A stretch of DNA of 64,000 nucleotides from Bdellovibrionales bacterium (GTDB taxonomy: Bacteria > Bdellovibrionota > Bdellovibrionia > Bdellovibrionales > DASUEL01). The position numbers and the translations under genes are program-made. Shown here one piece after another: positions 15,574 through 32,870 of this stretch. The notes beneath the pieces are model-generated. The model was given only the letters and a program-made list of their open reading frames with translations, did no database searches and was not told where the DNA came from. The stretch's first letter is position 1. Each line of letters begins with the position of its first letter. The DNA lies in the NCBI GenBank assembly GCA_050250255.1, contig JBFWOZ010000007.1:1-64000 (forward strand), written 5' to 3'.

Positions 15574-15755
15574 GAATTCCCCCTGTTCATTTTTTTGATA
15601 ACAACTGGTCTCTAGGCACCTGTTCTACGAAAAGGTTGCGTTTGACGACCCCATACCCTTCATAATTCAAAGTGTATTCCAAGGAATGCGTCTCAAAACG
15701 AGACACGGGGCTCCTTTGGTTGAGAAGCGTCCTGCTTTTCGCTATTTTGATAGAT

Positions 15756-16370
15756 ATGAAAAGTCTTTTTTTAAGTTTTACTCTTTTGTTTTGTTCTTTC
15801 CAGCTTGAAGCCGCAAAGCCGAGTGTTCCCGTAAAGGTTGTTGTACTCGGTGATTCCCTCACGGAAGGATATGGATTAGATAAAGACCAAGCCTTCCCCG
15901 CACTTGTTGAAAAGAAGTTTCTCGACCGTGGGAAAAAAGTGGAAGTGATCAATGCCGGCGTGAGTGGTTCTACTTCAGCTGGTGGGCTTTCTCGCGTCGC
16001 TTGGGTTATGAAATCTAAACCTCAATTTGTTGTAGTGGCACTTGGCTCTAATGATGGCTTGAGAGGTTTAGATGTTAGCGCCTGTAAAAAAAATATTAAA
16101 GAAATTATTCAACGGGTTCGAGCTGACGGTGCCACTCCTCTTCTTATCGGTATGAAAGTGCCGCCCAACTATGGAGTAGAATACACGAAAAAATTTGAGA
16201 ATATTTTTTTGGAACTCTCAGCGGAGGAAAAAGTACCATTGCTTCCATTTTTGCTTTTAGGGGTTGCAGGTCAGCCAAAATATAATCTTCCCGATGCCAT
16301 TCATCCCAACAAAGAAGGTCATAAAATTTTAGCCGAAACGGTCTATCAATTTTTAGAGAAAAATATATGA
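15756..16370 (+). CDS. tesA: Arylesterase/thioesterase (SGNH, TesA-like)
   Basis: GDSL, NAGVSG, GSNDG, DAIHP; signal peptide. Confidence 0.92.
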   Translation: MKSLFLSFTLLFCSFQLEAAKPSVPVKVVVLGDSLTEGYGLDKDQAFPALVEKKFLDRGKKVEVINAGVSGSTSAGGLSRVAWVMKSKPQFVVVALGSNDGLRGLDVSACKKNIKEIIQRVRADGATPLLIGMKVPPNYGVEYTKKFENIFLELSAEEKVPLLPFLLLGVAGQPKYNLPDAIHPNKEGHKILAETVYQFLEKNI

Positions 16371-17038
16371 ACTCGGATCTTCTCCTTCAAGTTCGCTCTG
16401 TGTCTAAATCCTTTGTTCAAGGTACAAATCGCATTGAAGTTTTAAAAAATTTAGAACTTTCTGTGCGCAAAGGAGAAACCGTTGCCATTCTTGGTGAGTC
16501 AGGAAGCGGAAAGTCCACGCTTTTGTCACTCCTGGCGGGCTTAGACAAACCAGATAAGGGAAATATTCTCATCGACAGTTTTGATATTAGTCAAATGAGC
16601 GAAGCGGAACTAACCAATGTGAGGGGACAGCTTTTAGGTATGGTGTTTCAGCAATACCATCTTATCCCAAGCCTCAATGCTTTAGAAAACATTAGCCTCC
16701 CTCTTGATATTCAAAAACAGGTGGATGCGGAAGTCCGTTCAAAAAATGCCTTGGCGCAGGTGGGTCTTTCTCATCGAGCGTCGCATCTTCCGCATCAGAT
16801 GAGTGGGGGAGAATGTCAAAGAGTGGCGATTGCTCGGGCGATTGTACCACGCCCTCTTCTTTTGTTGGCCGATGAGCCCTCAGGAAATTTAGATGTGAAC
16901 ACCGGAACCCATGTTCTTGATATGATGTTTGACATCATTAAAACAAATCACATGACGGCACTTTTTGTCACCCATAGTGAAGAAGTCGCCAGACGATGTC
17001 AGCGCCGCGTACATTTGAAAAATGGCCAATTAGTATGA
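16367..17038 (+). CDS. ybbA: ABC transporter ATP-binding protein (YbbA/LolD-like)
   Basis: GESGSGKS, MSGGECQR, LLADEP; sits between tesA and the permease. Confidence 0.88.
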   Translation: MNSDLLLQVRSVSKSFVQGTNRIEVLKNLELSVRKGETVAILGESGSGKSTLLSLLAGLDKPDKGNILIDSFDISQMSEAELTNVRGQLLGMVFQQYHLIPSLNALENISLPLDIQKQVDAEVRSKNALAQVGLSHRASHLPHQMSGGECQRVAIARAIVPRPLLLLADEPSGNLDVNTGTHVLDMMFDIIKTNHMTALFVTHSEEVARRCQRRVHLKNGQLV

Positions 17039-21058: not shown

Positions 21059-21087
21059 AAAAGGGTATCGCAAGGTGCCCTTTTTTT
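21059..21087 (+). terminator. Intrinsic terminator, possibly bidirectional
   Basis: AAAAGGGTATC-GCAA-GGTGCCCTTTTTTT between convergent genes. Confidence 0.8.
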
Positions 21088-22438
21088 ATTGATTGAATTG
21101 GGAAATGGCTTGAGTGGCTTTGAAAAGATTCAGTCGACCGTTACTCATGCTCTTGTCTTTTAAGGCCTCAATGGCATCTACGTTTTGTAAAAGAATTTTT
21201 TTAAGAGACAAGCTCGCTTCTTTAGGAGAGCTTTTGTAATAGTCGTTAAAAGTTCGGTTTGCAGCGCTGTGAAGAAGCGCAACGGCACCCGCCACGTAAG
21301 GAGTAGCCATAGAAGTTCCGGTCATCTTCATAATGCTCTGACCGGGCACTGTCGAGAGGACATCCGTTCCTGGAGCGCCAAGATCGATGCTCTTTATTCC
21401 ATAACCTGAAGAGGTATTGAGACGATCGAGTTCGTCGGTATTTGTAACCGCGATTAAGCTTTCGCTTTCACATCCTGTTGGAACATCTCCTCTTGCATCC
21501 ACATCGATATTGCGATTGATGGTGGCAGCGACAGAGAGAATGCCATAGTTCCCCATCAAATTATAAATATCATTCCATGGTTTATATTCATTGGACTTAC
21601 AATCTGCAAAGTCGACACCGAAGCTCGAGTTTGTGGCGACAACATTGGCGCCTTTCATACCTCTGGATTCTAGCCAGATTTTTTTCTGAACAAGTACGTA
21701 GTTATAGGCCTTTAAAACGGTAGAGGTTTTTCCTGAAGCTCCAACAACCGACATAATTTTTACTTGATGATTCACGCCGCACACTTGAATCTGATTGTTT
21801 CCTCGTGCTCCTACAATTCCTGCAACATGGGTTGCGTGTGCATCACGAGGGAGTTTACCGCTGTCATCAAACGCGTTCCAACCATTTACGTCGTCGATGT
21901 ATCCATTACCATCATCGTCTTTACCATTGGCTGCAATTTCTGTTTTGTTCACCCAAATATTTTCTCGAAGGTCTTCATGGAGAATATCAATTCCACCATC
22001 TACAACGGCAACGACGATATCGCTGCCCGAGACATCCTGACCACCCTTTGAATAGTTCCAAGCCTCTGTCGCTTTGATGTCGGCATTGGGGGTTACAGTA
22101 TTCTTCAATGGCCATTGCAATTTAAAATCTGGATCGTTCGGCATATCTCGGAGCGACACCTCGTAATCGGGCACCGCGTACTCTACGCTTTTAATTTCTC
22201 GAAGTTGTCTGAGTGTTTCACCGATAGAGACATTATTTTTTTTGTAGCCCAAATAAATACCAAGTGCGGGTACAAGCTCTTCCGTGTGAGTCACGGCGTT
22301 GAGAAGATTGGTCTCTTTTATTGCAATAGAATTTTTCAACCGAAAAATCACTTGCTCAGAAGAGAATTCAGCCGCTTTAGAATTTTGAGTGAATAAAAAA
22401 AGACAGAGAGACAGTGGCCAGCAAAGAGTCGTTTTCAC
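21086..22438 (-). CDS. Secreted S8 subtilisin-like serine protease
   Basis: VAVVDGG, HATHVAG, GTSMATP catalytic triad motifs; signal peptide. Confidence 0.95.
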   Translation of the reverse strand: MKTTLCWPLSLCLFLFTQNSKAAEFSSEQVIFRLKNSIAIKETNLLNAVTHTEELVPALGIYLGYKKNNVSIGETLRQLREIKSVEYAVPDYEVSLRDMPNDPDFKLQWPLKNTVTPNADIKATEAWNYSKGGQDVSGSDIVVAVVDGGIDILHEDLRENIWVNKTEIAANGKDDDGNGYIDDVNGWNAFDDSGKLPRDAHATHVAGIVGARGNNQIQVCGVNHQVKIMSVVGASGKTSTVLKAYNYVLVQKKIWLESRGMKGANVVATNSSFGVDFADCKSNEYKPWNDIYNLMGNYGILSVAATINRNIDVDARGDVPTGCESESLIAVTNTDELDRLNTSSGYGIKSIDLGAPGTDVLSTVPGQSIMKMTGTSMATPYVAGAVALLHSAANRTFNDYYKSSPKEASLSLKKILLQNVDAIEALKDKSMSNGRLNLFKATQAISQFNQ

Positions 22439-22572: not shown

Positions 22573-23451
22573 CTAGAACATGTCATCCACGGCACATGGA
22601 TTTTCTATCTCTCGAAGGAGGAAGTTCTTTGTGTCGAGAGGTTTCCAACCGCGCCCCAAAAGCTCATTGTACTTAGACTGAGGGACAGATGGGACTTGAG
22701 TCGAATCAAAGAAATCTGTGTTCGTGGTGTAGCCATTAAGAGGATCCATGACATCGGCAGGGTTTGTGGGCCAAGGTCTCCACATCAAAACCATAGAAAT
22801 GTGCATGCGAGGTCCTTGGTAGTATTGTAGCTTCATAGGTAAGCGAGTCGTGCGATCAAAATGTACGGCCTGTGTGGCGACTTGGAAGCGCGTAGGATGA
22901 TCGTTTTCGTTTTCAATCAAAGTTTGAAACGGAACGTTGCTGTCAGGTTGGAGGCTAAGAGTTGCTCCATCATCTGAGAGGATAGCGAATTGATAATCAC
23001 CGATGTGCGTATCGGAAGCATTTAACATCAACGTACTTTCGAGTTGTAAACCAAAGTATTCGTAGAGCGTGTCCCCGGTATTTGTTTTAAGGGTGACGCC
23101 CTCTTGTGTGGTAAACCCTAGGTCAAAGGCGCGCGTCGGAACAAAGAGTCGACTTAAAAATAAGGTGACTCGATCTACAAGAACTCCATGGTTGATGTAG
23201 TCTGATGAACGATTGTAGCGAGGCATATCGTCGGTGAGGTAATAGAATTTTCCCGTTAAACCATTTTGACGGTAGACGAGTTCATCGTTACTAAAGGGAT
23301 CACAAACAACCGGCTCTACAGGCGGATTGATCTCGAGCTTCATCCCTTCGCTACTTTGTCCAGAGCCATTATCTTGGCCGGGCTGGCAGGCCAACTGCGA
23401 GACAGAAATAATAAGACCGTAAAGTATTATGCTTATTCTTTTTATCGCCAT
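22573..23451 (-). CDS. PA14-domain lipoprotein
   Basis: Lipobox QLAC; YQFAILSDDGA, LQYYQGP. Confidence 0.8.
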   Translation of the reverse strand: MAIKRISIILYGLIISVSQLACQPGQDNGSGQSSEGMKLEINPPVEPVVCDPFSNDELVYRQNGLTGKFYYLTDDMPRYNRSSDYINHGVLVDRVTLFLSRLFVPTRAFDLGFTTQEGVTLKTNTGDTLYEYFGLQLESTLMLNASDTHIGDYQFAILSDDGATLSLQPDSNVPFQTLIENENDHPTRFQVATQAVHFDRTTRLPMKLQYYQGPRMHISMVLMWRPWPTNPADVMDPLNGYTTNTDFFDSTQVPSVPQSKYNELLGRGWKPLDTKNFLLREIENPCAVDDMF

Positions 23452-23657: not shown

Positions 23658-23821
23658 AGGTTGGAGGTTTGGGGTTTATCGTTTGAGGTTTGTCGTACCG
23701 TTAGAGGTTTACCGTTTGAGTTTTCGGTTGAGTACCGCCTGAGATTTAGACCTCCAACCTCCAACCTTTAAACGGTACCTCAAACCCTAAACCTCAAACG
23801 ACAAACCTCCAACCGTAAACC
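23658..23821. repeat. Inverted array of degenerate heptamer repeats
   Basis: Left arm GGTTGGA/GGTTTGG/CGTTTGA/GGTTTGT units; right arm complementary CCTCCAA/CTCAAAC/GACAAAC units. Confidence 0.8.
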
Positions 23822-24450
23822 TATGTCGTCACCAACACCGCTCTAACAGGAGAAGCATCCGCGCTAGCAATCTTCAACGGCATCGCAATCAACGTATAGT
23901 TACCAGGCTGTACATGAGCAAGAACAAGTCCTTCGAGATTCACAATTTGATTTTTCGAAATCGCTTGATGGCTTTCAAGAATTTTGTCAGCAAAAGGGTC
24001 AATGGAAGGAGTGTCGATTCCTATCAGGAGCACGTTCTTTTCGGACAAAAATTCAATCAGCTCGGGTGAAAGACTATTGAAATCTTCATTGAAATGATTG
24101 GGATCGGGAAAGGAATTTGTTTTGAGGAGTATTCTCTGCGAGGTGATGGATTCTTTTAGATCTTGAACTTGGATTCGCTTTCCTCGAGGGATATTCACTT
24201 CTAGCACCTGACAGTGACCGTAATAAGGTTCGAGCTCCATACGATCAATGCTCGGACCACTTCGTAGGTAGTGAGAGCGGGCGTCGGCATGAGCACCTAA
24301 ATGTACGGTTGTATGAATAGAACTGAGTCCAATGTTCGCGCCTTGCTCCATATCTAACGAAATGTTGCGAGTAAAAGGCGTATCGCCTGGCCAAACCGCA
24401 ATCTTTTCTGAAATGAGTGGCGAAATATCAATGAATTGGTTCTTCTTCAT
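23821..24450 (-). CDS. kynB: Cyclase family, kynurenine formamidase-like
   Basis: VWPGD, HLGAHAD metal motif, GIDTPSID, LEGL, DASPVRAVL. Confidence 0.82.
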   Translation of the reverse strand: MKKNQFIDISPLISEKIAVWPGDTPFTRNISLDMEQGANIGLSSIHTTVHLGAHADARSHYLRSGPSIDRMELEPYYGHCQVLEVNIPRGKRIQVQDLKESITSQRILLKTNSFPDPNHFNEDFNSLSPELIEFLSEKNVLLIGIDTPSIDPFADKILESHQAISKNQIVNLEGLVLAHVQPGNYTLIAMPLKIASADASPVRAVLVTT

Positions 24451-24457
24451 AATCCTC

Positions 24458-25825
24458 TTATAAGGTCGCGATCACTTTAAATTCCACAGCGATAGGCGTA
24501 GGTAAGGCGATCACCGCCAGCGTTGTACGGGTTGCTTGAATCTTCGAAAAATATTCCGCGTAAACTTTATTGAAGGTCGCAAAGTCACGATCCATATCGA
24601 TGAGATAAACGGTCACATCAAAAACTTTTTCCAGTGAAGAACCGGATTCTTCCAAAATTCGTTTTATGTTCTCGATGACCGCTCGGGTTTGTAATTCTAC
24701 GTCATACTTCTGAATATTTCCTTGAGCATCACGAACGGGGCCTCCAGGAATGGCATTTGTTTCTGGTTGTCTTGGGCCAACTCCGGAAAGAAAAAGAAGA
24801 TTCCCCACTTTACGTGCATGTGGGTAAGCCCCCACAGGCTTTGGTGCTTTCGAAGAGTGAGCGTGGACGGCGGACGAAGTGGATGTGGTTGTCTGAGTGA
24901 CCAAAGGTTGAGCTATCGTCTCAACGGGTTGAGCGGAAAGAACATTCTGATTTCCTTTGAATGTTTCCGTATCCTCTTCATCGAACTCTCTTTCCATCCC
25001 GGCTTTGTCAGAAGGAGTGAGTCCTACGAGTGCGGCACCCGTACCGTAAATAGGCTGATATTCAAACACCTTGCCTTCGTAGTGATTGTTTTGCCCCATC
25101 GCCGAAGCCAACCACCAGAGAGCTTTCATTTTTTGATCGCCATTGGCCTGAGCACTGAACTCTCTGGCTAATTGGGAGACGTCTTCAAGCCGACCATCAG
25201 CAAGAAGTTCCAAGAGTTTGCGGTTCCACTCATCATCTTTACTCGAATAAATACGATCCTCCTTAGGATTGATCTTTTTCGAGAACATGCGGTGAGAAAG
25301 AGAAGTGACCGCGATCACTACGGTTTTTTTATTTTGTGAGAGAATCGCATCACGAGTGGCTTTTCCTAAGACGAGCGTTTCGGCTCGATCCGCGTACATG
25401 TTGCACGAGAGTACGCATGCGGGAAATTTATTTTTCGGATTGAGAAGTTTTAGAGCCACGACCGTTCCGGTATCAATCGGAAAACCTTTGTAGGCGACAG
25501 TTCGTGCATGTAAGCCTCTTTTTTGTGCGGCCTTCTCAAGCTCAGAGGCGTAACTTGCATCCATCTTAAATTGGTAAGGAATTTCCCCAAGCGCATGAAA
25601 CTCTTGGTCCACATGAGTCCATTGGGGTTCAGGATCTGCTTGAATTTGATGGCCGATCACGCTTGGCCACTGCGAGCTATACACCATGATAAGATCAGGT
25701 TTGATTTCTTCTATCTCTGCGCAGACTTTTTCAAAAGATTTACGTAATGCGCCCCAACCCTCGTTTTGATCAGCGGCTAAGAGAGGATGAGGTTTTCCGG
25801 GTACGATATATCCTTTAACAATCAT
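24458..25825 (-). CDS. 2-aminophenol 1,6-dioxygenase alpha subunit fused to RidA-family (2-aminomuconate deaminase-like) domain
   Basis: N-terminal LigB-like part (YSSQW, FPIDTGT, GTGAA); C-terminal APKPVGAYPHARKVGNLLFLSG...ATRTT...LPTPIAVEFK. Confidence 0.85.
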   Translation of the reverse strand: MIVKGYIVPGKPHPLLAADQNEGWGALRKSFEKVCAEIEEIKPDLIMVYSSQWPSVIGHQIQADPEPQWTHVDQEFHALGEIPYQFKMDASYASELEKAAQKRGLHARTVAYKGFPIDTGTVVALKLLNPKNKFPACVLSCNMYADRAETLVLGKATRDAILSQNKKTVVIAVTSLSHRMFSKKINPKEDRIYSSKDDEWNRKLLELLADGRLEDVSQLAREFSAQANGDQKMKALWWLASAMGQNNHYEGKVFEYQPIYGTGAALVGLTPSDKAGMEREFDEEDTETFKGNQNVLSAQPVETIAQPLVTQTTTSTSSAVHAHSSKAPKPVGAYPHARKVGNLLFLSGVGPRQPETNAIPGGPVRDAQGNIQKYDVELQTRAVIENIKRILEESGSSLEKVFDVTVYLIDMDRDFATFNKVYAEYFSKIQATRTTLAVIALPTPIAVEFKVIATL

Positions 25826-26700
25826 GACATACTCCAGCTCACCACGGCATTGCCGGTACCAATCACGCTTCCATAGGCGTGAACCTCAGCTGGGGATTCA
25901 GGGAAGTCCATGCTGCTCAGAAGCCAGCTCAACCCGCCGGTTTTACATTCACTCACAGATTGATCAATGAAGTCGGTCATCACATCAAAGAGTTGTTTCG
26001 ACTTTCCTTTTTTCATGAGTTTTAAAACCATCATGTCCCATAGATACTGATTGTGGTTGTAGATATGTTCGTGAGTCATGTCTTCGGGGAGCGCGGGTTC
26101 TTCGGTGAAGTGGCGGTGGCTTAAAGAAGTGCTTGCGAGTAACAAAGCTCTCTTACCTGATTTTTCAACGGCCTTTCGAGTGGCTTCGCCAAGCTTTAAC
26201 ATCTCTTGTTGGCCCACATCATTACTATAGTCAAAGTAGGCGGCATTGGCAGAAATGGAAACGATAGGTTTATCGAATGTGGGGTTGATCATGTGTCCAG
26301 AAATAATAGTTCCGTAATCCACTCGGAAAGATGGATTCGTCATCAGTTCACTTTGTAAACCAACACCGACAATTTCTTTGTGTAAGAGTTTTGCAAGGTC
26401 TGTGTCGACTTTCATTTTATAATGATAACGAAACAAGTTAGGGAAGACCGGATCTACGGAGAGGCTCGACATTTCGGGAACACATAAGACGTGATGACCC
26501 GTGTGGGTAAACCAATGCGGCGTGTGTACGATGATCACATCGTAATCACTGGCATTGATAGTTTTTCGACAACGCTCGTAACCCCATCGCAATTCTTCCC
26601 AACCACATTCAGACTTAGGTTCATTTTGCGGAGGATTTTCGGCGTACACCAGATGTGGAGGATGCGGAGCTAAAACTCCCGCAACAATTTTTCCACTCAT
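25822..26700 (-). CDS. amnB: 2-aminophenol 1,6-dioxygenase beta (catalytic) subunit
   Basis: APHPPHLVYAENPPQNEP signature; H13, H62, Y129, H195 and E251 fall at the positions I recall for the Comamonas CNB-1 enzyme. Confidence 0.93.
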   Translation of the reverse strand: MSGKIVAGVLAPHPPHLVYAENPPQNEPKSECGWEELRWGYERCRKTINASDYDVIIVHTPHWFTHTGHHVLCVPEMSSLSVDPVFPNLFRYHYKMKVDTDLAKLLHKEIVGVGLQSELMTNPSFRVDYGTIISGHMINPTFDKPIVSISANAAYFDYSNDVGQQEMLKLGEATRKAVEKSGKRALLLASTSLSHRHFTEEPALPEDMTHEHIYNHNQYLWDMMVLKLMKKGKSKQLFDVMTDFIDQSVSECKTGGLSWLLSSMDFPESPAEVHAYGSVIGTGNAVVSWSMS

Positions 26701-28148
26701 AAATGTTCTCCTGTATTGATACAGACAGTTTTTGTCTCGCTGAAAAACTCAAGACTCAGTTTTCCACCCTCACGTCCCACACCGCTGTCTTTCACACCAC
26801 CAAAGGGAACACGCAAATCTCTCATGAGCCACGTGTTCACCCAAACCGTTCCGGCTTGAATGAGGTGAGCCACTCGATGAGCACGGTTTAAATTTTCCGT
26901 CCAAATCGAAGCGCTCAAGCCGTAATTGAGGTGGTTACAGGATTCGATGACCTCGGACTCAGATTCAAATGCATGAATGGTTACCACAGGACCAAAAATT
27001 TCTTCTTGGGCTGTTCGACACGTGTCGGGAAGATCGGCGATGATTGTAGGGGGATAGAAAAAACCGTTGGCGTTATTTCCAGAGAGTGTGGGTTTCTGTC
27101 CTCCAAGAACAATGCGCCCGCCTTCTTCTTGAGCGAGCGTGACATACTTTTCAATTTTGTCTCGGTGCGCGGAGGAAATCAAAGAACCAAATTGAGTGGT
27201 CATATCGGTTGGATCACCCATTTTCCAAGATTTCACTTCTTCAACCAAGCGTTCGAGAAATTTTTTGTAGATGTTTTTCTCAACGTAAATGCGTGAACCA
27301 CAAAGACAAATTTGTCCCTGATTTAAAAAGCTGGAACGAGCGACGCCCTTAACGGCTTTATCCATATCACATTCAGAAAATACAACTGTCGGATTTTTTC
27401 CGCCCATTTCGAGGCTTGTTTTTTTGAAAGATTCCGAAGTGAGTTGCGACACACGACGACCCGTCACCGTGCCTCCGGTAAAGGAAACCGCTTTGACGAG
27501 AGGGTGTTTTACAAGTGGTTCGCCGATTTTAGGTCCAAGTCCATGAACAACGTTAAAAATTCCCGCAGGTGCTTTGATGTCATGAAAGGCTTGGGCCAAT
27601 CGATTAGCTGTAAGCGGAGTGAGTTCACTAGGTTTAGCTACTACGGTATTTCCCATAGCGAGAGCTGGCGCGAGTTTCCAAGTAAGAAGATAAAGAGGAA
27701 GATTCCATGGAGTGATTAAACTCACCACTCCGAGCGGTTGTCGGATCGAATAACTAAATCCATTGGGAGTATTAAAAAAATCCGTATTGTTTTGTTGAAT
27801 GGCTTGAGAGAAAAAACGAAGGTTACTGATCGCACGCGGAATGTCTAGCTCTCGGCAGAGAGAAAAAGGTTTACCGGTGTCCAGACATTCCAGTTCACAA
27901 AACTCTTGAAAGTTTCTTTCAATTTCAGAGGCCAAGCGTTCGAGAAGATCCGCGCGTTCTTTGAGAGTGGTTTTAGACCAAGTTTCAAATGCATGAGTCG
28001 CGGCTTCAATCGCTTTACTGCCATCGGAAGCTTGGCTCGAAGGAATCTGACAAATCAACTCTCCAGTTGCGGGATTGAGATTGGGCATCGTCTCTCTGGT
28101 CTCAGACCATTTGCCACCGATGTAATTGAGCACATTTGAAATTTTCAT
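26697..28148 (-). CDS. 2-aminomuconic/2-hydroxymuconic semialdehyde dehydrogenase (ALDH8-like)
   Basis: LDIPRA, PWNLPLYLLTWK, LEMGGKN, NQGQICLCGSR, RDLRVPFGG; ATG 28148 overlaps the upstream stop. Confidence 0.9.
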   Translation of the reverse strand: MKISNVLNYIGGKWSETRETMPNLNPATGELICQIPSSQASDGSKAIEAATHAFETWSKTTLKERADLLERLASEIERNFQEFCELECLDTGKPFSLCRELDIPRAISNLRFFSQAIQQNNTDFFNTPNGFSYSIRQPLGVVSLITPWNLPLYLLTWKLAPALAMGNTVVAKPSELTPLTANRLAQAFHDIKAPAGIFNVVHGLGPKIGEPLVKHPLVKAVSFTGGTVTGRRVSQLTSESFKKTSLEMGGKNPTVVFSECDMDKAVKGVARSSFLNQGQICLCGSRIYVEKNIYKKFLERLVEEVKSWKMGDPTDMTTQFGSLISSAHRDKIEKYVTLAQEEGGRIVLGGQKPTLSGNNANGFFYPPTIIADLPDTCRTAQEEIFGPVVTIHAFESESEVIESCNHLNYGLSASIWTENLNRAHRVAHLIQAGTVWVNTWLMRDLRVPFGGVKDSGVGREGGKLSLEFFSETKTVCINTGEHL

Positions 28149-29233
28149 AGAAGACCTCTTTCGTAATCTTGCCAAGAATAATACCAACGATCTTGGTTGG
28201 GATCCCAATTGTCCCAGGTGGGAACAAGTTCTAATTTTGAAAGGAGAGAAGGCGGAACAATTCCAGGAACAAGAAACGCTTTTTGACGTTTCATAGAATA
28301 AGGATTGCGTAAATCAAAACCCAAAACGCCTAAAATTCCACGTGCGATATACCAGGTTGCTTGTGGGTTCCAGCCGTGAGCAATTTTAATAACGATACCT
28401 AACCCTTCAGGATAATCGGGATGGACGACCGAGAGTCCGAGTAAGCCATCGGCTCCCTCTTTCGCAAGTACCTTACCACCGCAGGCTTTTAAAATTGTGG
28501 AATCGAGACGATTGAATCCGCCTACGAGATCGGGGTGGCGAATCATCGCTTCCCAAATCCAGTTTTCATCTCGATGTTTTGCGAGACCTGAGAAAATTTT
28601 TGCAAGCTCAGTCACCGTATTGGAAAAAGTCGGTAGGCCACAACCGTCGCGAGCGACACGAAGAGGTTCCCAGGTTTTTCCGAGAAACTTTCTTGTTTCT
28701 TCAAGGTAGCCCATGAAAAAAGGATGCATCGGAAGCATATAGCCCGTGCGACTCCAGCCTTTGAGTTGGCAACCTGCTAAAATTGCGGCGTGTTCACCGG
28801 AACAGCAGTGATACCAGCGTCTGGGTCTGCGAACTTGTCTTCCAAATTGTACGAGAGGCACATCGAGAGGAGTTTGCATCAATCCCCAGTCGGATTCTTG
28901 AAGGATGGATTGAGCGGCGGCCACGTGTTCGGTATCACCGTTATGACTTGCAACCGAAATTGCTTTTTGTTCCCAATTCAAAACGTTCGCTAATTCTTTT
29001 TCAAAAACTTTTATCATGATCGGCTTCATCATGCTTCGTCCGTAACAGAGAACGTTTCCACCAAAGGAATGCACAACCTTATCACCACTGCACCAAGCGA
29101 TGGCTCCGTGAATGGTGGTTTCGCTCACATCATGTCTACGATAATCAACCAATGGTTCCCACTCCACATCTCGGCCGGTGGGGATACCTTTATGATCTTC
29201 ACCGATGGGACTTTTTGGGTAAAACTCGCTCAT
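28145..29233 (-). CDS. Class 3 (Rhizobium etli-type, asparaginase II family) asparaginase-like hydrolase
   Basis: RSMMKP (SxxK), ASHNG, CCSGEH (canonical NCSGKH), DGCGLP, AKEGADG. Confidence 0.85.
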   Translation of the reverse strand: MSEFYPKSPIGEDHKGIPTGRDVEWEPLVDYRRHDVSETTIHGAIAWCSGDKVVHSFGGNVLCYGRSMMKPIMIKVFEKELANVLNWEQKAISVASHNGDTEHVAAAQSILQESDWGLMQTPLDVPLVQFGRQVRRPRRWYHCCSGEHAAILAGCQLKGWSRTGYMLPMHPFFMGYLEETRKFLGKTWEPLRVARDGCGLPTFSNTVTELAKIFSGLAKHRDENWIWEAMIRHPDLVGGFNRLDSTILKACGGKVLAKEGADGLLGLSVVHPDYPEGLGIVIKIAHGWNPQATWYIARGILGVLGFDLRNPYSMKRQKAFLVPGIVPPSLLSKLELVPTWDNWDPNQDRWYYSWQDYERGLL

Positions 29234-30465
29234 GGACGAAGCCTTTCTTTTACCAATGGGATCACTTTAGTCTTAAAAGCATTCATGTTTTCAACGATGC
29301 GACCACTGTCATGATTAAAAAAGTCAAACCATAACATGAGCCGATCATCAGGATGAAAACGTTCGACAATTTGGGTTGCAACTTCCTCAGCTGTTCCTAT
29401 GAGAGCGTTATCCGCGGCGTTGGAAATTTTCTTAGGATCCAAAGTTCCTTCAATGGCTTTCCAGTACGCCGAGAGGGCTTCCTGAGCTTCTGCGCGCGCT
29501 TTCTGAGATTTTTGTTCTGTTGAAAGATTTGTTTGTTCGTTGAGAAATACAAAAACGGTTCGTGGCATGTATTCGCGTTTCCACGGCCCACCAGCGTGGT
29601 GATAGGACTTTTGCATTCGTGCGTGGGTTTCATCAATCACTTCAGGCTTAGTGATGGAAAGATTAAACACGCGAGTTGGGAAAAACTGGTTTGCATGTTC
29701 TTGAGCCTGAGGATCGTGAGAACCGATGATGGGTTGGCACAAGTCTCGCTGCCAATCCTGAGGAATAATTTTTATTTTTTCAAACTGCCAACGATTAGTG
29801 ACGACGATGTGGTCATTTTTCTTTTGCGAAGCTTCGGCGCTTTTCCAGGCGTTGTCCCAGTCTTCTTTTGTACGGAAATCCGAAGGCTTTAAAGTTGCTG
29901 GTGACACGTCGTTAGAAGCAATGGCTTCACCACGTAAAAGACGCAAAAAGATTTCGGTTGCCTCAAGAAATATTTTTCCTTTTAAGACGGGCCATACTTG
30001 TTCTTCAAAAGAATTACGAGCGAGAACTCCGCTCACACGATTCATAAATTCAAAACGACCGGCCGAAAAACCTAAATGTATTTTTCTTTTCTCTTCTGGG
30101 TTTAAACCATGAAGTGTGCAAAAAGTGGCAAGCTTTTCAGCCGCTGCGATAGGACCACCGTTACAAACGATGTTCATGACGGCAGAGCCTGTTTCGATTT
30201 TTTTTGTCTTATGGAAAACTTGGTGGGAAAGCTGAAAAATATCGGCATTGAGTCCGACTTCCCCTTCCCAATGAGGCACGACCACGTGTTTATGTGTTTT
30301 TTGAGTTTGCGCAGAGAAGTGGGATTCGGCAATCCACGCGGTCTCATAACCGAGTTCATCGGCGGCGATAACTTGTTCAAAAAAGTTTTCGAACATGACC
30401 TGTTCGGTCGGAAGGTAGCCTTGCACCGGCGTTTGGCTGATGGAGAAAAAAATATCAAACTTCAA
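29230..30465 (-). CDS. Luciferase-like (LLM) flavin-dependent monooxygenase
   Basis: MKFDIFFS, AADELGYETAWIAESH, LGFSAG, IGTAEEVATQI; TTG start. Confidence 0.85.
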   Translation of the reverse strand: MKFDIFFSISQTPVQGYLPTEQVMFENFFEQVIAADELGYETAWIAESHFSAQTQKTHKHVVVPHWEGEVGLNADIFQLSHQVFHKTKKIETGSAVMNIVCNGGPIAAAEKLATFCTLHGLNPEEKRKIHLGFSAGRFEFMNRVSGVLARNSFEEQVWPVLKGKIFLEATEIFLRLLRGEAIASNDVSPATLKPSDFRTKEDWDNAWKSAEASQKKNDHIVVTNRWQFEKIKIIPQDWQRDLCQPIIGSHDPQAQEHANQFFPTRVFNLSITKPEVIDETHARMQKSYHHAGGPWKREYMPRTVFVFLNEQTNLSTEQKSQKARAEAQEALSAYWKAIEGTLDPKKISNAADNALIGTAEEVATQIVERFHPDDRLMLWFDFFNHDSGRIVENMNAFKTKVIPLVKERLRP

Positions 30466-30503: not shown

Positions 30504-31292
30504 CTAGAGGCTTTTCGTTCTGCCGCCGTCGACCGCTAAACTCACGCCTCTCACATAGGATGCGGCGGGTGAGGCCAAAAAACAAATTGCGTGGGCAATT
30601 TCAGAAGGATCGGCAAAGCGGCCCTCAGGTACAGTTTGGAGCCATTCTTTCTCTATTTGTTCGACGGAGCAACCCCTTTTTTCGGAGGCCATTTTCATCA
30701 AAGCCTGTAGGCGATGGGTGTTGGTGTAGCCCGGCAAAACGTTATTAATTGTGACCGATTTTGGAAGCTCCATGGCGAGTGTTTTAGACCAAGAGGCCAT
30801 AGCCCCTCGTAAAGTGTTGCTGACGCCAAGGTTCGGGAGAGGTTCACGTACCGAAGTAGAAATAACGTTAATGATTCGCCCATAAAATTCTGCCTGCATT
30901 GAGGGAAGGCAAACCTGTACGAGAGTTTGGGCAGAAAAAAGATGGCGCTTTAAGGCAAGAAGATACTCCTCAGAAGAGGCTTTAAGAGCGGGACCGGGAT
31001 TTGGGCCCGCAGAGTTATTCACTAAAATATGGATCGGACCTTTTGTTCCGATGACTTGCTCGACTCGCGTTTTTAATTCTGCGGTATTCTCCATATCGAC
31101 TGCGAGAATCTCTCCAACTTGTCCACCTTGCGTGACGATTTCGTTCTTTAATTCGAAAAGCGCGTCTTCGCTTCTCGCTAGAAGGTGAATCTGTGCGCCA
31201 AGTTTTGCGAGCTCGAGAGCGGTCGCCCGTCCAATTCCTTTGCTGGCACCACAAACTAAAGCAGTTTTATGTTTTAAAGAAAATGGATTCAT
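30504..31292 (-). CDS. Atypical short-chain dehydrogenase/reductase
   Basis: GASKGIG, VNNSAGP, SNTLR in place of YxxxK, NNVLPG, VDGG. Confidence 0.9.
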   Translation of the reverse strand: MNPFSLKHKTALVCGASKGIGRATALELAKLGAQIHLLARSEDALFELKNEIVTQGGQVGEILAVDMENTAELKTRVEQVIGTKGPIHILVNNSAGPNPGPALKASSEEYLLALKRHLFSAQTLVQVCLPSMQAEFYGRIINVISTSVREPLPNLGVSNTLRGAMASWSKTLAMELPKSVTINNVLPGYTNTHRLQALMKMASEKRGCSVEQIEKEWLQTVPEGRFADPSEIAHAICFLASPAASYVRGVSLAVDGGRTKSL

Positions 31293-31307: not shown

Positions 31308-32870
31308 TTAGCCTCGTGTCGTTTTAAAATAGCGTGAAACAAATTCGATCCCCCAGCGTACGCCAAAGCCGGTGGTTAATGTATTCACTAGTCCCAGGCC
31401 TCCTTTGTTTTCGCAGGCAGCTAGGTCTACGTGAACCCAGTTTGTTTCTTCACCAATAAAATTTTGCAAAAAAGTAGCGGCGTAAATGTGATCTCCGGGA
31501 CTTTCCATGCGGCACTGAAGAAGATCGGCCACCGTGGATTTGATTCCGTCTTTGTAGTCTTCACCGATAGGGAAAGACCAAGTTCGTTCCCCACTTCGTT
31601 CACCTGCGGCTACTGCTTGTTCTAGGAGAGCAGGAGGTCCGCCAAAAATAGCAGAACGTTTTGTATCGAGAGCGTACACGGCAACGCCCGTGAGAGTCGC
31701 AAAATCAATTACAAGATCAGGATTTATTTTACGTGCGAGCGCCAATGTGTCGGCGAGAGCCATGCGCCCTTCGGCATCGGTATTTTGTACTTCGATGGTG
31801 GTCCCATCCATGGCCGTCACCACCTCATTGGGTTTGTAGGCGGTAGGAGAAATTAAATTTTCCGTGAGCGCGAGGTAGGCGTGTACTTCGTGGGGGAAAT
31901 CTATTTTCAAAAGGGTTTCGAAAATGGCGAGCGCCACTGCGGAACCAGTCATGTCGTTCTTCATGCCGTACATGTGTTTTACTTTGACGTCGTAACCACC
32001 GGTATCAAAACAAAGACCTTTGCCAACAAGTGCGAGTTTTTTAGAATTCTTTTTACCGGGCTTCCAAATGTGAACGATGCCTGTAGACTCTGGAGCGGCT
32101 CGTGCTACTGCAAGAAAAGCTCCGGCTCCCATTTTTTCTAATTTTTTGTGATCATAGAATTCGAATTTATATTTTTGTTCTTTAGCTCGAGCTTCCACCA
32201 ACTCCGAATAGGTTTGCGGGTTGAGCATATTGGGTGGAATTTCCGCTAATGTGCGAACAAAGTTATTCGCTTTTCCAAGCATAAAACTTTGTTCCGCAAT
32301 CTGTGAGATTTCCTTCGGACTTAAAGAACTTTGCACCTGAAGTTCGAAGTGTCTTGTTTTGACCTTCTTGGGTTTTTTGCTTGTTTTTGGGCTCTCCCAA
32401 TGTACGAGTGCCAATAGACAAGAAAAAGCTTCGAGAGCTATTGGTTGCAGATTTTTAGGGAGGTCGCTGAGGACTAATTCGATGGGACCTTCCCAATCCA
32501 ACTTAAGTGGGACTGCAAAGAGTTCGCGAAACCAAGAGTGGAGTTCGAAAACAGTGACATTGGGCTTTAGAAAAAGAAACTGACAAGCTCCGCCTTCGTC
32601 AAAATGAACGGTTGCAGCGCTCTTCACCTTCTCGTCGTTTTCCCAATCTTTCATTTTTTTGGTCAGTTGCTTTTTAGCGCCTTCAGACCACTGATTTTTT
32701 TTAGGGAAACTATCGGTCACTTTTTTGGATTGGCTTAACGGTGCGATCACGCAAGTGAGATTTTGGAAGCGAGAAGTAGGCTTACCTGAGCTCTTTAAAA
32801 CCTTCAGTGAGAGAGTTTGTTCAGAGGCTTTAACCTTGTCTTTGGGGAGGAATTTTGTGAGTGAATTCAT
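31308..32870 (-). CDS. M17 leucyl aminopeptidase
   Basis: VGKGLCFDTGG, MKNDM, NTDAEGR, ATLTG. Confidence 0.93.
   Translation of the reverse strand: MNSLTKFLPKDKVKASEQTLSLKVLKSSGKPTSRFQNLTCVIAPLSQSKKVTDSFPKKNQWSEGAKKQLTKKMKDWENDEKVKSAATVHFDEGGACQFLFLKPNVTVFELHSWFRELFAVPLKLDWEGPIELVLSDLPKNLQPIALEAFSCLLALVHWESPKTSKKPKKVKTRHFELQVQSSLSPKEISQIAEQSFMLGKANNFVRTLAEIPPNMLNPQTYSELVEARAKEQKYKFEFYDHKKLEKMGAGAFLAVARAAPESTGIVHIWKPGKKNSKKLALVGKGLCFDTGGYDVKVKHMYGMKNDMTGSAVALAIFETLLKIDFPHEVHAYLALTENLISPTAYKPNEVVTAMDGTTIEVQNTDAEGRMALADTLALARKINPDLVIDFATLTGVAVYALDTKRSAIFGGPPALLEQAVAAGERSGERTWSFPIGEDYKDGIKSTVADLLQCRMESPGDHIYAATFLQNFIGEETNWVHVDLAACENKGGLGLVNTLTTGFGVRWGIEFVSRYFKTTRG

Follow-up and report, generated by a model that had tools for sequence, protein, structure and literature searches.

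A divergent asparaginase-like hydrolase in a kynurenine/2-aminophenol gene set of Bdellovibrionales points to a probable pyridoxal phosphate-free route of tryptophan breakdown

Class 3 L-asparaginases such as ReAIV and ReAV of R. etli are the closest described relatives of ASP (P0001), a protein of 362 aa encoded within a stretch of 64,000 nucleotides from a Bdellovibrionales bacterium (GenBank assembly GCA_050250255.1, contig JBFWOZ010000007.1, positions 1 to 64,000; hereafter "the window"). According to PMC11024299 and PMC8602277 the zinc ion of ReAV is coordinated by Cys135, Lys138 and Cys189, in agreement with a sequence-only reading of the window which had named zinc binding by the Cys and the Lys of the NCSGKH motif. 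PMC11024299 further gives Lys138 as 97% conserved across orthologues, with 1.5% of the activity left in the K138A mutant and none in C135A and C189A; partial retention of activity is described for ReAV K138A and ReAIV K137A in PMC11024299 and PMC10917881. In ReAV, Asn134 forms H bonds to Lys51 and Ser80 (PMC8602277), and the alpha-amino/carboxyl end of the ligand is held by zinc together with Arg47 (PMC12292245, PMC12951835). The meta-cleavage of 2-aminophenol is known from nitroaromatic degraders (amn, cnb and nbz genes) and from the ARO microcompartment locus, for which PMC10470539 calls the natural source of 2-aminophenol unknown and uses the Rid deaminase gene as marker of the 2-aminophenol branch, not of the catechol branch. 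With regard to type II Baeyer-Villiger monooxygenases (e.g. the diketocamphane enzymes 4uwm and 5aec), PMC12239570 reports that during the breakdown of progesterone a luciferase-like monooxygenase subjects an acyclic ketone to a Baeyer-Villiger step; an aryl-ketone amino-acid substrate for luciferase-family Baeyer-Villiger enzymes was not described in the literature searched.

On balance we favour, with moderate confidence, the view that the genes around ASP encode an undescribed route of tryptophan breakdown without pyridoxal phosphate (PLP), carried from predatory bacteria into marine Poseidoniia archaea by gene transfer, in which kynurenine is split by a luciferase-like monooxygenase (LLM) and ASP into aspartate and 2-aminophenol, and in which members of the ASP clade possess a Cys/Lys/Cys or Cys/Glu/Cys zinc site or else lack the cysteines and are then probably zinc-free. 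ASP is an altered relative of the rhizobial asparaginases within a probably undescribed pathway; no description of the ASP clade or of the route was found in the literature searched, whose coverage excluded most subscription journals and supplements. The gene and its two diagnostic segments are as follows.

28145..29233, minus strand: ASP (P0001), 362 aa, class 3 asparaginase-fold Ser-Lys hydrolase, predicted beta-aspartyl-2-aminophenol hydrolase (domain, structure and alignment matches)
28790..28807, minus strand: codons of C143-C144-S-G-E147-H148, equivalent to N134-C135-S-G-K138-H139 of ReAV (alignment)
28457..28462, minus strand: codons of K258-E259, the second catalytic Lys and a clade-invariant Glu, equivalent to K263-L264 of ReAV (alignment)

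ASP is the product of an open reading frame (ORF) running from 29233 to 28145 on the minus strand; a gene on the plus strand was rejected because of stops throughout that reading. It matches the Pfam profile PF06089 (Asparaginase_II) with 167.8 bits (E 4e-49), and a sequence search against solved structures returns ReAIV (8cly, E 2e-16) and ReAV (7os3, E 2e-13). Although identity to these two enzymes amounts to only about 22-24%, they are the clear top structural matches of the AlphaFold model of ASP (pLDDT 92.8; E about 1e-19, TM about 0.68). The sequence-only reading had reported an asparaginase-II homologue with CCSGEH for NCSGKH and retained SxxK, ASH, DGC and K.GADG motifs. The PF06089 match and the alignment to ReAV and ReAIV bear out the former observation, and the retained motifs are all located in ASP as R66-S67-M-M-K70, A-S96-H97, D196-G-C198 and K258-E259-G-A-D-G. 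Pairwise alignments equate C143, C144, E147 and C198 of ASP with Asn134, Cys135, Lys138 and Cys189 of ReAV. ASP accordingly resembles ReAV in both zinc cysteines (C144 and C198), both Ser-Lys tandems (S67/K70 and S96/K258 for Ser48-Lys51 and Ser80-Lys263) as well as R66, H148, Y165 and D196 (Arg47, His139, Tyr156 and Asp187), whereas the zinc ligand Lys138 and Asn134 of NCSGKH are replaced by E147 and C143. All ReAV residues that serve catalysis or bind the alpha-carboxylate (R47, S48, K51, S80, H139, Y156, D187 and K263) are kept in P0001 and near-invariant in 111 rows of the clade. CCSGEH is no sequencing error, since among the 121 closest proteins (the query and the best 120 of 1686 matches) 79 read CCSGEH, 34 TCSGEH, 4 GCSGEH, 1 PCSGEH and 3 otherwise, i.e. 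118 of 121 read xCSGEH. Judged from sequence, ASP is class 3 asparaginase-like in working and fold, but differs at the Lys138 and Asn134 positions and should be assayed before it is classed as an L-asparaginase.

ASP is part of a minus-strand row of genes in the order M17 peptidase, SDR, LLM, ASP, ALDH, AmnB, AmnA-Rid fusion and KynB. At four of the junctions the neighbouring genes share 4 nt, and at the remaining ones they are 7-38 nt apart, with ATG 28148, the likely start which gives the aldehyde dehydrogenase (ALDH) a 4-nt overlap with the ASP stop, taken as its first codon.

31308..32870, minus strand: M17 leucyl aminopeptidase, possibly co-transcribed, 15 bp upstream of SDR
30504..31292, minus strand: short-chain reductase (SDR), probably a late pathway step (50% identity to the SDR of a relative's textbook KMO/KynU cluster)
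29230..30465, minus strand: LLM, 411 aa, predicted kynurenine Baeyer-Villiger monooxygenase, 4-nt overlap with ASP (PF00296, fold)
26697..28148, minus strand: ALDH, 2-aminomuconate/2-hydroxymuconate-semialdehyde dehydrogenase-like (TIGR03216, E 4.5e-176, under its cut-off)
25822..26700, minus strand: AmnB, 2-aminophenol 1,6-dioxygenase beta subunit (3vsg_B, E 6e-105, ungapped, 291 aa)
24458..25825, minus strand: AmnA alpha subunit fused to a Rid-family 2-aminomuconate deaminase (7txy_A, E 2e-50; 6izh, E 2.5e-25)
23821..24450, minus strand: KynB-type arylformamidase, i.e. kynurenine formamidase (TIGR03035, 200.8 bits against a cut-off of 223)

AmnB possesses H13, H62, Y129, H195 and E251, which we presume to be its functional residues, and the best match of the Rid domain is the 2-aminomuconate deaminase 6izh. 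The AmnB, AmnA, AmnC-like and AmnD-like genes are shared with the amn, cnb and nbz clusters and the ARO locus. In contrast to the amn pathway, the lower module (oxalocrotonate decarboxylase and hydratase) gives no tblastn match in this genome (G000), although some relatives have it, in place of SDR; in contrast to the ARO locus, no shell genes are found among the annotated genes of the cluster. The upstream genes, moreover, suggest a natural source of 2-aminophenol, in which the present locus differs from both. Among the compared loci the M17 peptidase stands beside the gene cluster only here and in L001. Downstream of KynB follow, on the minus strand, a lipoprotein-like ORF of 292 aa free of Pfam and NCBIfam matches (22573-23451) and a subtilisin-family protease (21086-22438), neither of which is conserved beside the cluster in 80 loci. 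A promoter and terminator scan stayed at chance level.

The association of ASP with this neighbourhood was followed in a GTDB set comprising the best 80 of 458 matching stretches (68-81% identity; Bdellovibrionota, Myxococcota, Planctomycetota, Acidobacteriota and Thermoplasmatota). Motifs were read from 79 of these and the window's protein, L067 being left out as split: its homologue lies in two ORFs (L067:740-1957; frameshift or assembly error). The 80 aligned proteins comprise 35 NSSGHH, 26 NSSGQH, 14 TCSGEH, 4 CCSGEH and 1 GCSGEH; hence, both zinc cysteines are gone in 61 of 80 proteins from the same operon. Counted over 81 loci the neighbours are AmnA (70), AmnB (69), Rid (62), ALDH (59), LLM (52), SDR (45), TDO (22) and KynB (15), and all motif types occur in one common operon type. 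LLM is likewise present in 70 of 80 metagenome loci. More distant relatives which keep the Lys (HPCSGKH or HPCAGKH, 26-65% identity) are found in the full operon at L132, L192, L194 and L195 and otherwise right behind LLM. Once loci are pooled (duplicates removed, loci lacking a readable motif skipped, L111, L114 and L118 binned as canonical by hand), LLM, AmnA/B, KynB or TDO adjoin 4/4 CCSGEH, 66/70 other xCSGEH, 65/67 NSSG[QH]H and 35/37 Lys/Gln-keeping clade loci compared with 0/26 canonical ones. For the whole clade this amounts to 170 of 178 loci, and six of the eight loci devoid of such neighbours are stretches shorter than 4.2 kb. As most canonical loci had flanks of just 1.5 kb, eight with 15-19 kb of DNA were examined; none has tryptophan-catabolic neighbours. 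The neighbourhood thus tracks with the ASP clade, which, unlike class 3 asparaginases, has a fixed place within a kynurenine/2-aminophenol gene set, and it does not track with the CCSGEH hexamer, which was rejected as a neighbourhood marker since Lys-keeping and Cys-less members share the operon. Hence, of the tracking which the sequence-only reading had proposed for CCSGEH, the part that concerns the clade stands (170/178), and no scatter over unrelated contexts is seen at this level; the part that concerns the hexamer does not (4/80 CCSGEH against 61/80 NSSG[QH]H).

Within the clade, the canonical His, Cys-Gly and KxxDG marks are replaced. In all 268 rows aligned, positions 144 and 198 change in step (188 Cys/Cys, 80 Ser/Asp), which implies that both zinc cysteines were lost together in one branch; identity in this Cys-less branch is still 66-74%. 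For 47 of the 268 rows a careful tree under a mixture model, calculated with the motif columns removed, yields the order canonical proteins, a KynB-fused group (HxCFSKH), L123 (PCSGQH), L132 (PCSGKH) and xCSGEH, with NSSGQH/NSSGHH nested inside the latter. NSSGQH/NSSGHH form one clade (98/90), for which the Cys pair changes a single time. The CCSGEH proteins, in contrast, do not group together (5 changes), and position 143 changes 14 times. A quick tree in which the Cys-less proteins were basal within the main group, equivalent to regained cysteines, was reversed by the mixture-model tree. Since the two disagree and monophyly of xCSGEH is not rejected by the approximately unbiased (AU) test (p 0.354), this order of branching is likely but falls short of proof. 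Both trees make the association with LLM and KynB older than the Lys-to-Glu exchange, which would have come after recruitment to the pathway, so that the motif change is probably not the source of the new job. The further claim of the sequence-only reading that CCSGEH is the signature of retuning fails on the Cys-less and Lys-keeping members of the same operon and on the 14 changes at position 143. In these alignments the best clade marker, better than CCSGEH, is Glu259 at the position of ReAV Leu264 beside the oxyanion hole (239/239 clade rows against 1/29 canonical ones); a wider count (111/111 against 1/34) is partly circular, as some rows were found or sorted by that motif. Loss of the Asn equivalent to Asn134 fits the stem of the clade, yet Asn returns in the Cys-less branch. 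The zinc site of CCSGEH proteins is probably Cys/Glu/Cys, and the site as such is probably a tunable anchor for the alpha-amino-acid end, Cys/Lys/Cys at recruitment and later lost in one branch. An Asn-to-Cys exchange is also seen outside the clade, in the canonical-looking PF06089 protein P0224 (HCCSGQH).

The present genome (99.2% complete), whose TDO lies on a separate contig (C33), contains no KMO, kynureninase, 3-HAO or ACMSD; queries for KynU, KMO and 3-HAO detect their targets in 9/9 comparison genomes. Its one full-length FAD monooxygenase (L083) was rejected as KMO, being UbiH-like. Profiles of 50 of the 80 locus-bearing genomes reveal TDO in 50/50, LLM in 49/50 and a kynureninase over the cut-off in 0/50. 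Of 251 genomes sampled evenly across the phylum, each at least 90% complete, 70 contain PF06089 (47 with a divergent clade copy, 23 with canonical copies only), 60 KynU, 180 TDO, 39 LLM and 30 AmnB. Of the 39 LLM genomes, 38 possess clade ASP and none possesses KynU; KMO orthologues and 3-HAO are absent from all 39 (G183 shows just 31-33% matches) and present in 9/9 compared KynU genomes. All 30 AmnB genomes also possess LLM and clade ASP, LLM occurs in 26/26 genomes with non-fused clade copies against 1/23 canonical-only ones, and five genomes combine a canonical and a clade copy. The mutual exclusion of LLM and KynU holds inside the families f2, f3, f7 and f16, each of which contains both types. 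Eight regions of KynU genomes inspected by eye carry SDR, ACMSD, 3-HAO, Rid, ALDH, KynB, KynU, KMO and TDO genes (3-HAO confirmed, KMO and ACMSD named by position and sequence look), the SDR of one of them being 50% identical to that of the window. Thus, between the same entry (TDO/KynB) and exit (ALDH/deaminase/SDR) genes, LLM, ASP, AmnB and AmnA replace KMO, KynU, 3-HAO and ACMSD of the textbook bacterial kynurenine pathway to 2-aminomuconate, with which TDO, KynB, the semialdehyde dehydrogenase, the Rid deaminase and SDR are shared; the predicted C4 product is Asp instead of Ala and CO2, and a quinolinate route is missing.

ASP-KynB fusions of about 530 aa with HxCFSKH (L124-L126, L128, L130, L133, L136, L139, L142, L146, L149, L151, L152, L155 and L159) make up 15/15 group-B loci fetched; a further fusion, P0130 (HPCSGKH), looks like a separate event. 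The gene immediately upstream of ASP-KynB is KynU in L124 and L136, and LLM in L128, L130, L133, L139, L142, L146 and L159. LLM hence behaves as the C-C cleaving step. Eight genomes contain TDO, LLM and ASP but no AmnB, from which ASP seems to act before ring cleavage; their route may be a short one ending in Asp and 2-aminophenol.

Taken together, we regard it as fairly probable that LLM performs a Baeyer-Villiger oxidation of kynurenine and that ASP hydrolyses the resulting beta-aspartyl-2-aminophenol ester or anilide to Asp and 2-aminophenol. TDO and KynB, as judged by family matches, would convert tryptophan to kynurenine. LLM with reduced flavin mononucleotide (FMN) would insert oxygen between the aromatic ring and the ketone under aryl migration, giving 2-aminophenyl beta-aspartate. 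O-to-N acyl shift of a 2-aminophenyl ester to the anilide is general chemistry, and would here lead to N4-(2-hydroxyphenyl)-L-asparagine, an N-substituted asparagine. Ser67 of ASP may then attack a carbonyl equivalent to that of Asn, via a beta-aspartyl-enzyme as shown for ReAV, and so free L-aspartate and 2-aminophenol. From the latter, AmnBA, ALDH and the deaminase would form 2-oxohex-3-enedioate, which SDR probably reduces. Should LLM act before deformylation, the substrate of ASP would be the 2-formamidophenol ester, with unchanged end products. Because C10 kynurenine is turned into a C6 semialdehyde without a PLP enzyme or decarboxylase, the C4 unit would be aspartate, and since AmnBA needs 2-aminophenol, LLM and ASP must take off this unit and leave a ring oxygen. 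Aryl-substituted asparagine would thus be a natural substrate class for an asparaginase scaffold keeping its alpha-amino-acid anchor, and ASP is likely no longer mainly an asparaginase. The sequence-only reading had predicted a subfamily retuned for a beta-aspartyl aryl ester or anilide; the distinct, neighbourhood-tied subfamily is supported, and the substrate is probable.

Relatives of the cluster show further variation. A PF00551 formyltransferase, a candidate tetrahydrofolate-dependent formylkynurenine deformylase, flanks loci which themselves lack KynB (17 GTDB archaeal and 2 metagenome loci, e.g. L011:7242-7958 and L210:3272-3994). An alpha/beta hydrolase (BD-FAE, HGGFW) is present near SDR in KynB-less loci (25/80 metagenome loci, e.g. 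L218:2013-2789) and may, by its resemblance, be a eukaryotic-type formamidase. PanB (ketopantoate hydroxymethyltransferase) is encoded inside the cluster or next to it in 33/80 metagenome loci (e.g. L233:10261-11082), between ALDH and AmnB where checked. In L031 HGLS (2-oxoadipate dioxygenase/decarboxylase; 15590-16399) immediately follows KynB, which fits 2-oxoadipate as SDR product. The gene set of cultured Sulfidibacter corallicola M133 is split into two clusters (L058, L259), one with AmnB-AmnA-ASP (NSSGHH) and one with TDO-SDR-LLM-ALDH-Rid, and KynU is absent from this organism.

Several observations weigh against the proposed route. LLM shares the luciferase-like TIM barrel (PF00296) of the type II Baeyer-Villiger monooxygenases, with RslO1 (7bip) and luciferases as nearest structures, but its identity to any solved structure is just 12-16%, so that homology does not fix its reaction. 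Furthermore, a flavin reductase is not adjacent: none is encoded within the operon, and in the genome PF01613 has no and PF03358 three matches. (SDR was rejected for this role, as its 50% identical counterpart belongs to a textbook cluster.) Because the genomes are kin, their independence is overstated by the counts and by the Fisher p of 1e-8, and two handles stand for one genome in at least three cases (identical coordinates). Nine f16 genomes combine a divergent ASP copy with KMO, KynU and 3-HAO and lack LLM; the six that were fetched have intact-looking ASP-KynB fusions, and in the five compared pairwise the ASP domain drifts no faster (distance ratio 0.95-1.63) than in LLM genomes (1.07-1.44). 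G281 has TDO-LLM-KynB (L255, G281:C6) and no clade ASP; its canonical PF06089 copy elsewhere was rejected as a disguised clade member. Neither TDO nor Amn genes occur close to the basal LLM-ASP pairs L175-L186; these two-gene units (HPCAGKH) have an amidohydrolase and an RNA pseudouridine synthase as neighbours. To the same side belong two points taken up below, the singleness of P0001 in its genome and the closeness of ASP to AmnBA.

The main chemical rival, which we consider unlikely, takes LLM as a KMO analogue giving 3-hydroxykynurenine, whose ring AmnBA opens before ASP, in the manner of a meta-cleavage-product hydrolase, hydrolyses the C-C bond of the ring-opened beta-aspartyl enamine to release Asp and 2-aminomuconate semialdehyde. 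Carbon balance and attacked carbonyl are identical to those of the Baeyer-Villiger route, many loci from Bdellovibrionales and Acidobacteriota have ASP immediately after AmnB-AmnA, and AmnA and AmnB (70 and 69 of 81) adjoin ASP more often than LLM does (52/81). On this scheme, however, ASP would be left without substrate in the eight AmnB-less TDO+LLM+ASP genomes and in the basal LLM-ASP pairs, LLM trades position with KynU, not with KMO, and AmnB is very near to plain 2-aminophenol dioxygenases.

Quite unlikely, in our estimation, is that ASP is an ordinary L-asparaginase with a variant zinc site which merely travels with an amino-acid-catabolic operon. All catalytic residues are kept, the Lys mutants of ReAV and ReAIV are partly active (PMC11024299, PMC10917881), the KynB-fused form persists without LLM in the nine f16 genomes, and P0001 is the only asparaginase-family gene found in the genome, so that residual asparaginase activity is possible. 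Against this stand the tight coupling of non-fused clade copies to LLM (26/26 against 1/23), the lack of such neighbours at the eight canonical loci with long flanks and the gap from kynurenine to 2-aminophenol which an asparaginase would leave in the pathway. Moreover, according to PMC11024299, C135A and C189A kill ReAV, yet the Cys-less branch persists.

That the cluster breaks down another aromatic beta-aspartyl or formyl amide, with tryptophan as a secondary link, appears very unlikely. The basal pairs without Trp genes nearby would suit it, as would the fact that TDO is common in the phylum regardless (180/251); TDO, however, lies within the cluster in 22/81 loci, KynB is fused to or adjoins ASP, and kynureninase is absent wherever LLM occurs. 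Highly improbable, finally, is alkyl migration to O-anthraniloyl-serine, from which ASP would free anthranilate and serine, or ASP as a PLP-free kynureninase giving Ala: the exclusion of LLM and KynU (0/39) is expected if both yield anthranilate, but the electron-rich aryl group should migrate preferentially in a Baeyer-Villiger reaction, anthranilate does not belong to the o-aminophenols, the loci share no additional conserved hydroxylase or decarboxylase, and the ester carbonyl would be at a Gln-like position, glutaminase activity being described as absent from ReAV and ReAIV in PMC10917881.

If LLM and ASP indeed split kynurenine in the proposed way, they would form part of a new tryptophan breakdown route, apparently widespread among protein-consuming uncultured bacteria as well as abundant archaea of the sea (458 GTDB stretches matched), and would provide a natural 2-aminophenol source for enzymes known chiefly from pollutant degraders. 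The natural series C/K/C, C/E/C, S/Q/D and S/H/D at 62-91% identity offers a ready test of the role of the class 3 zinc site. The annotation as L-asparaginase II would, on the proposed scheme, be wrong for many proteins, which bears on screens for therapeutic class 3 enzymes.

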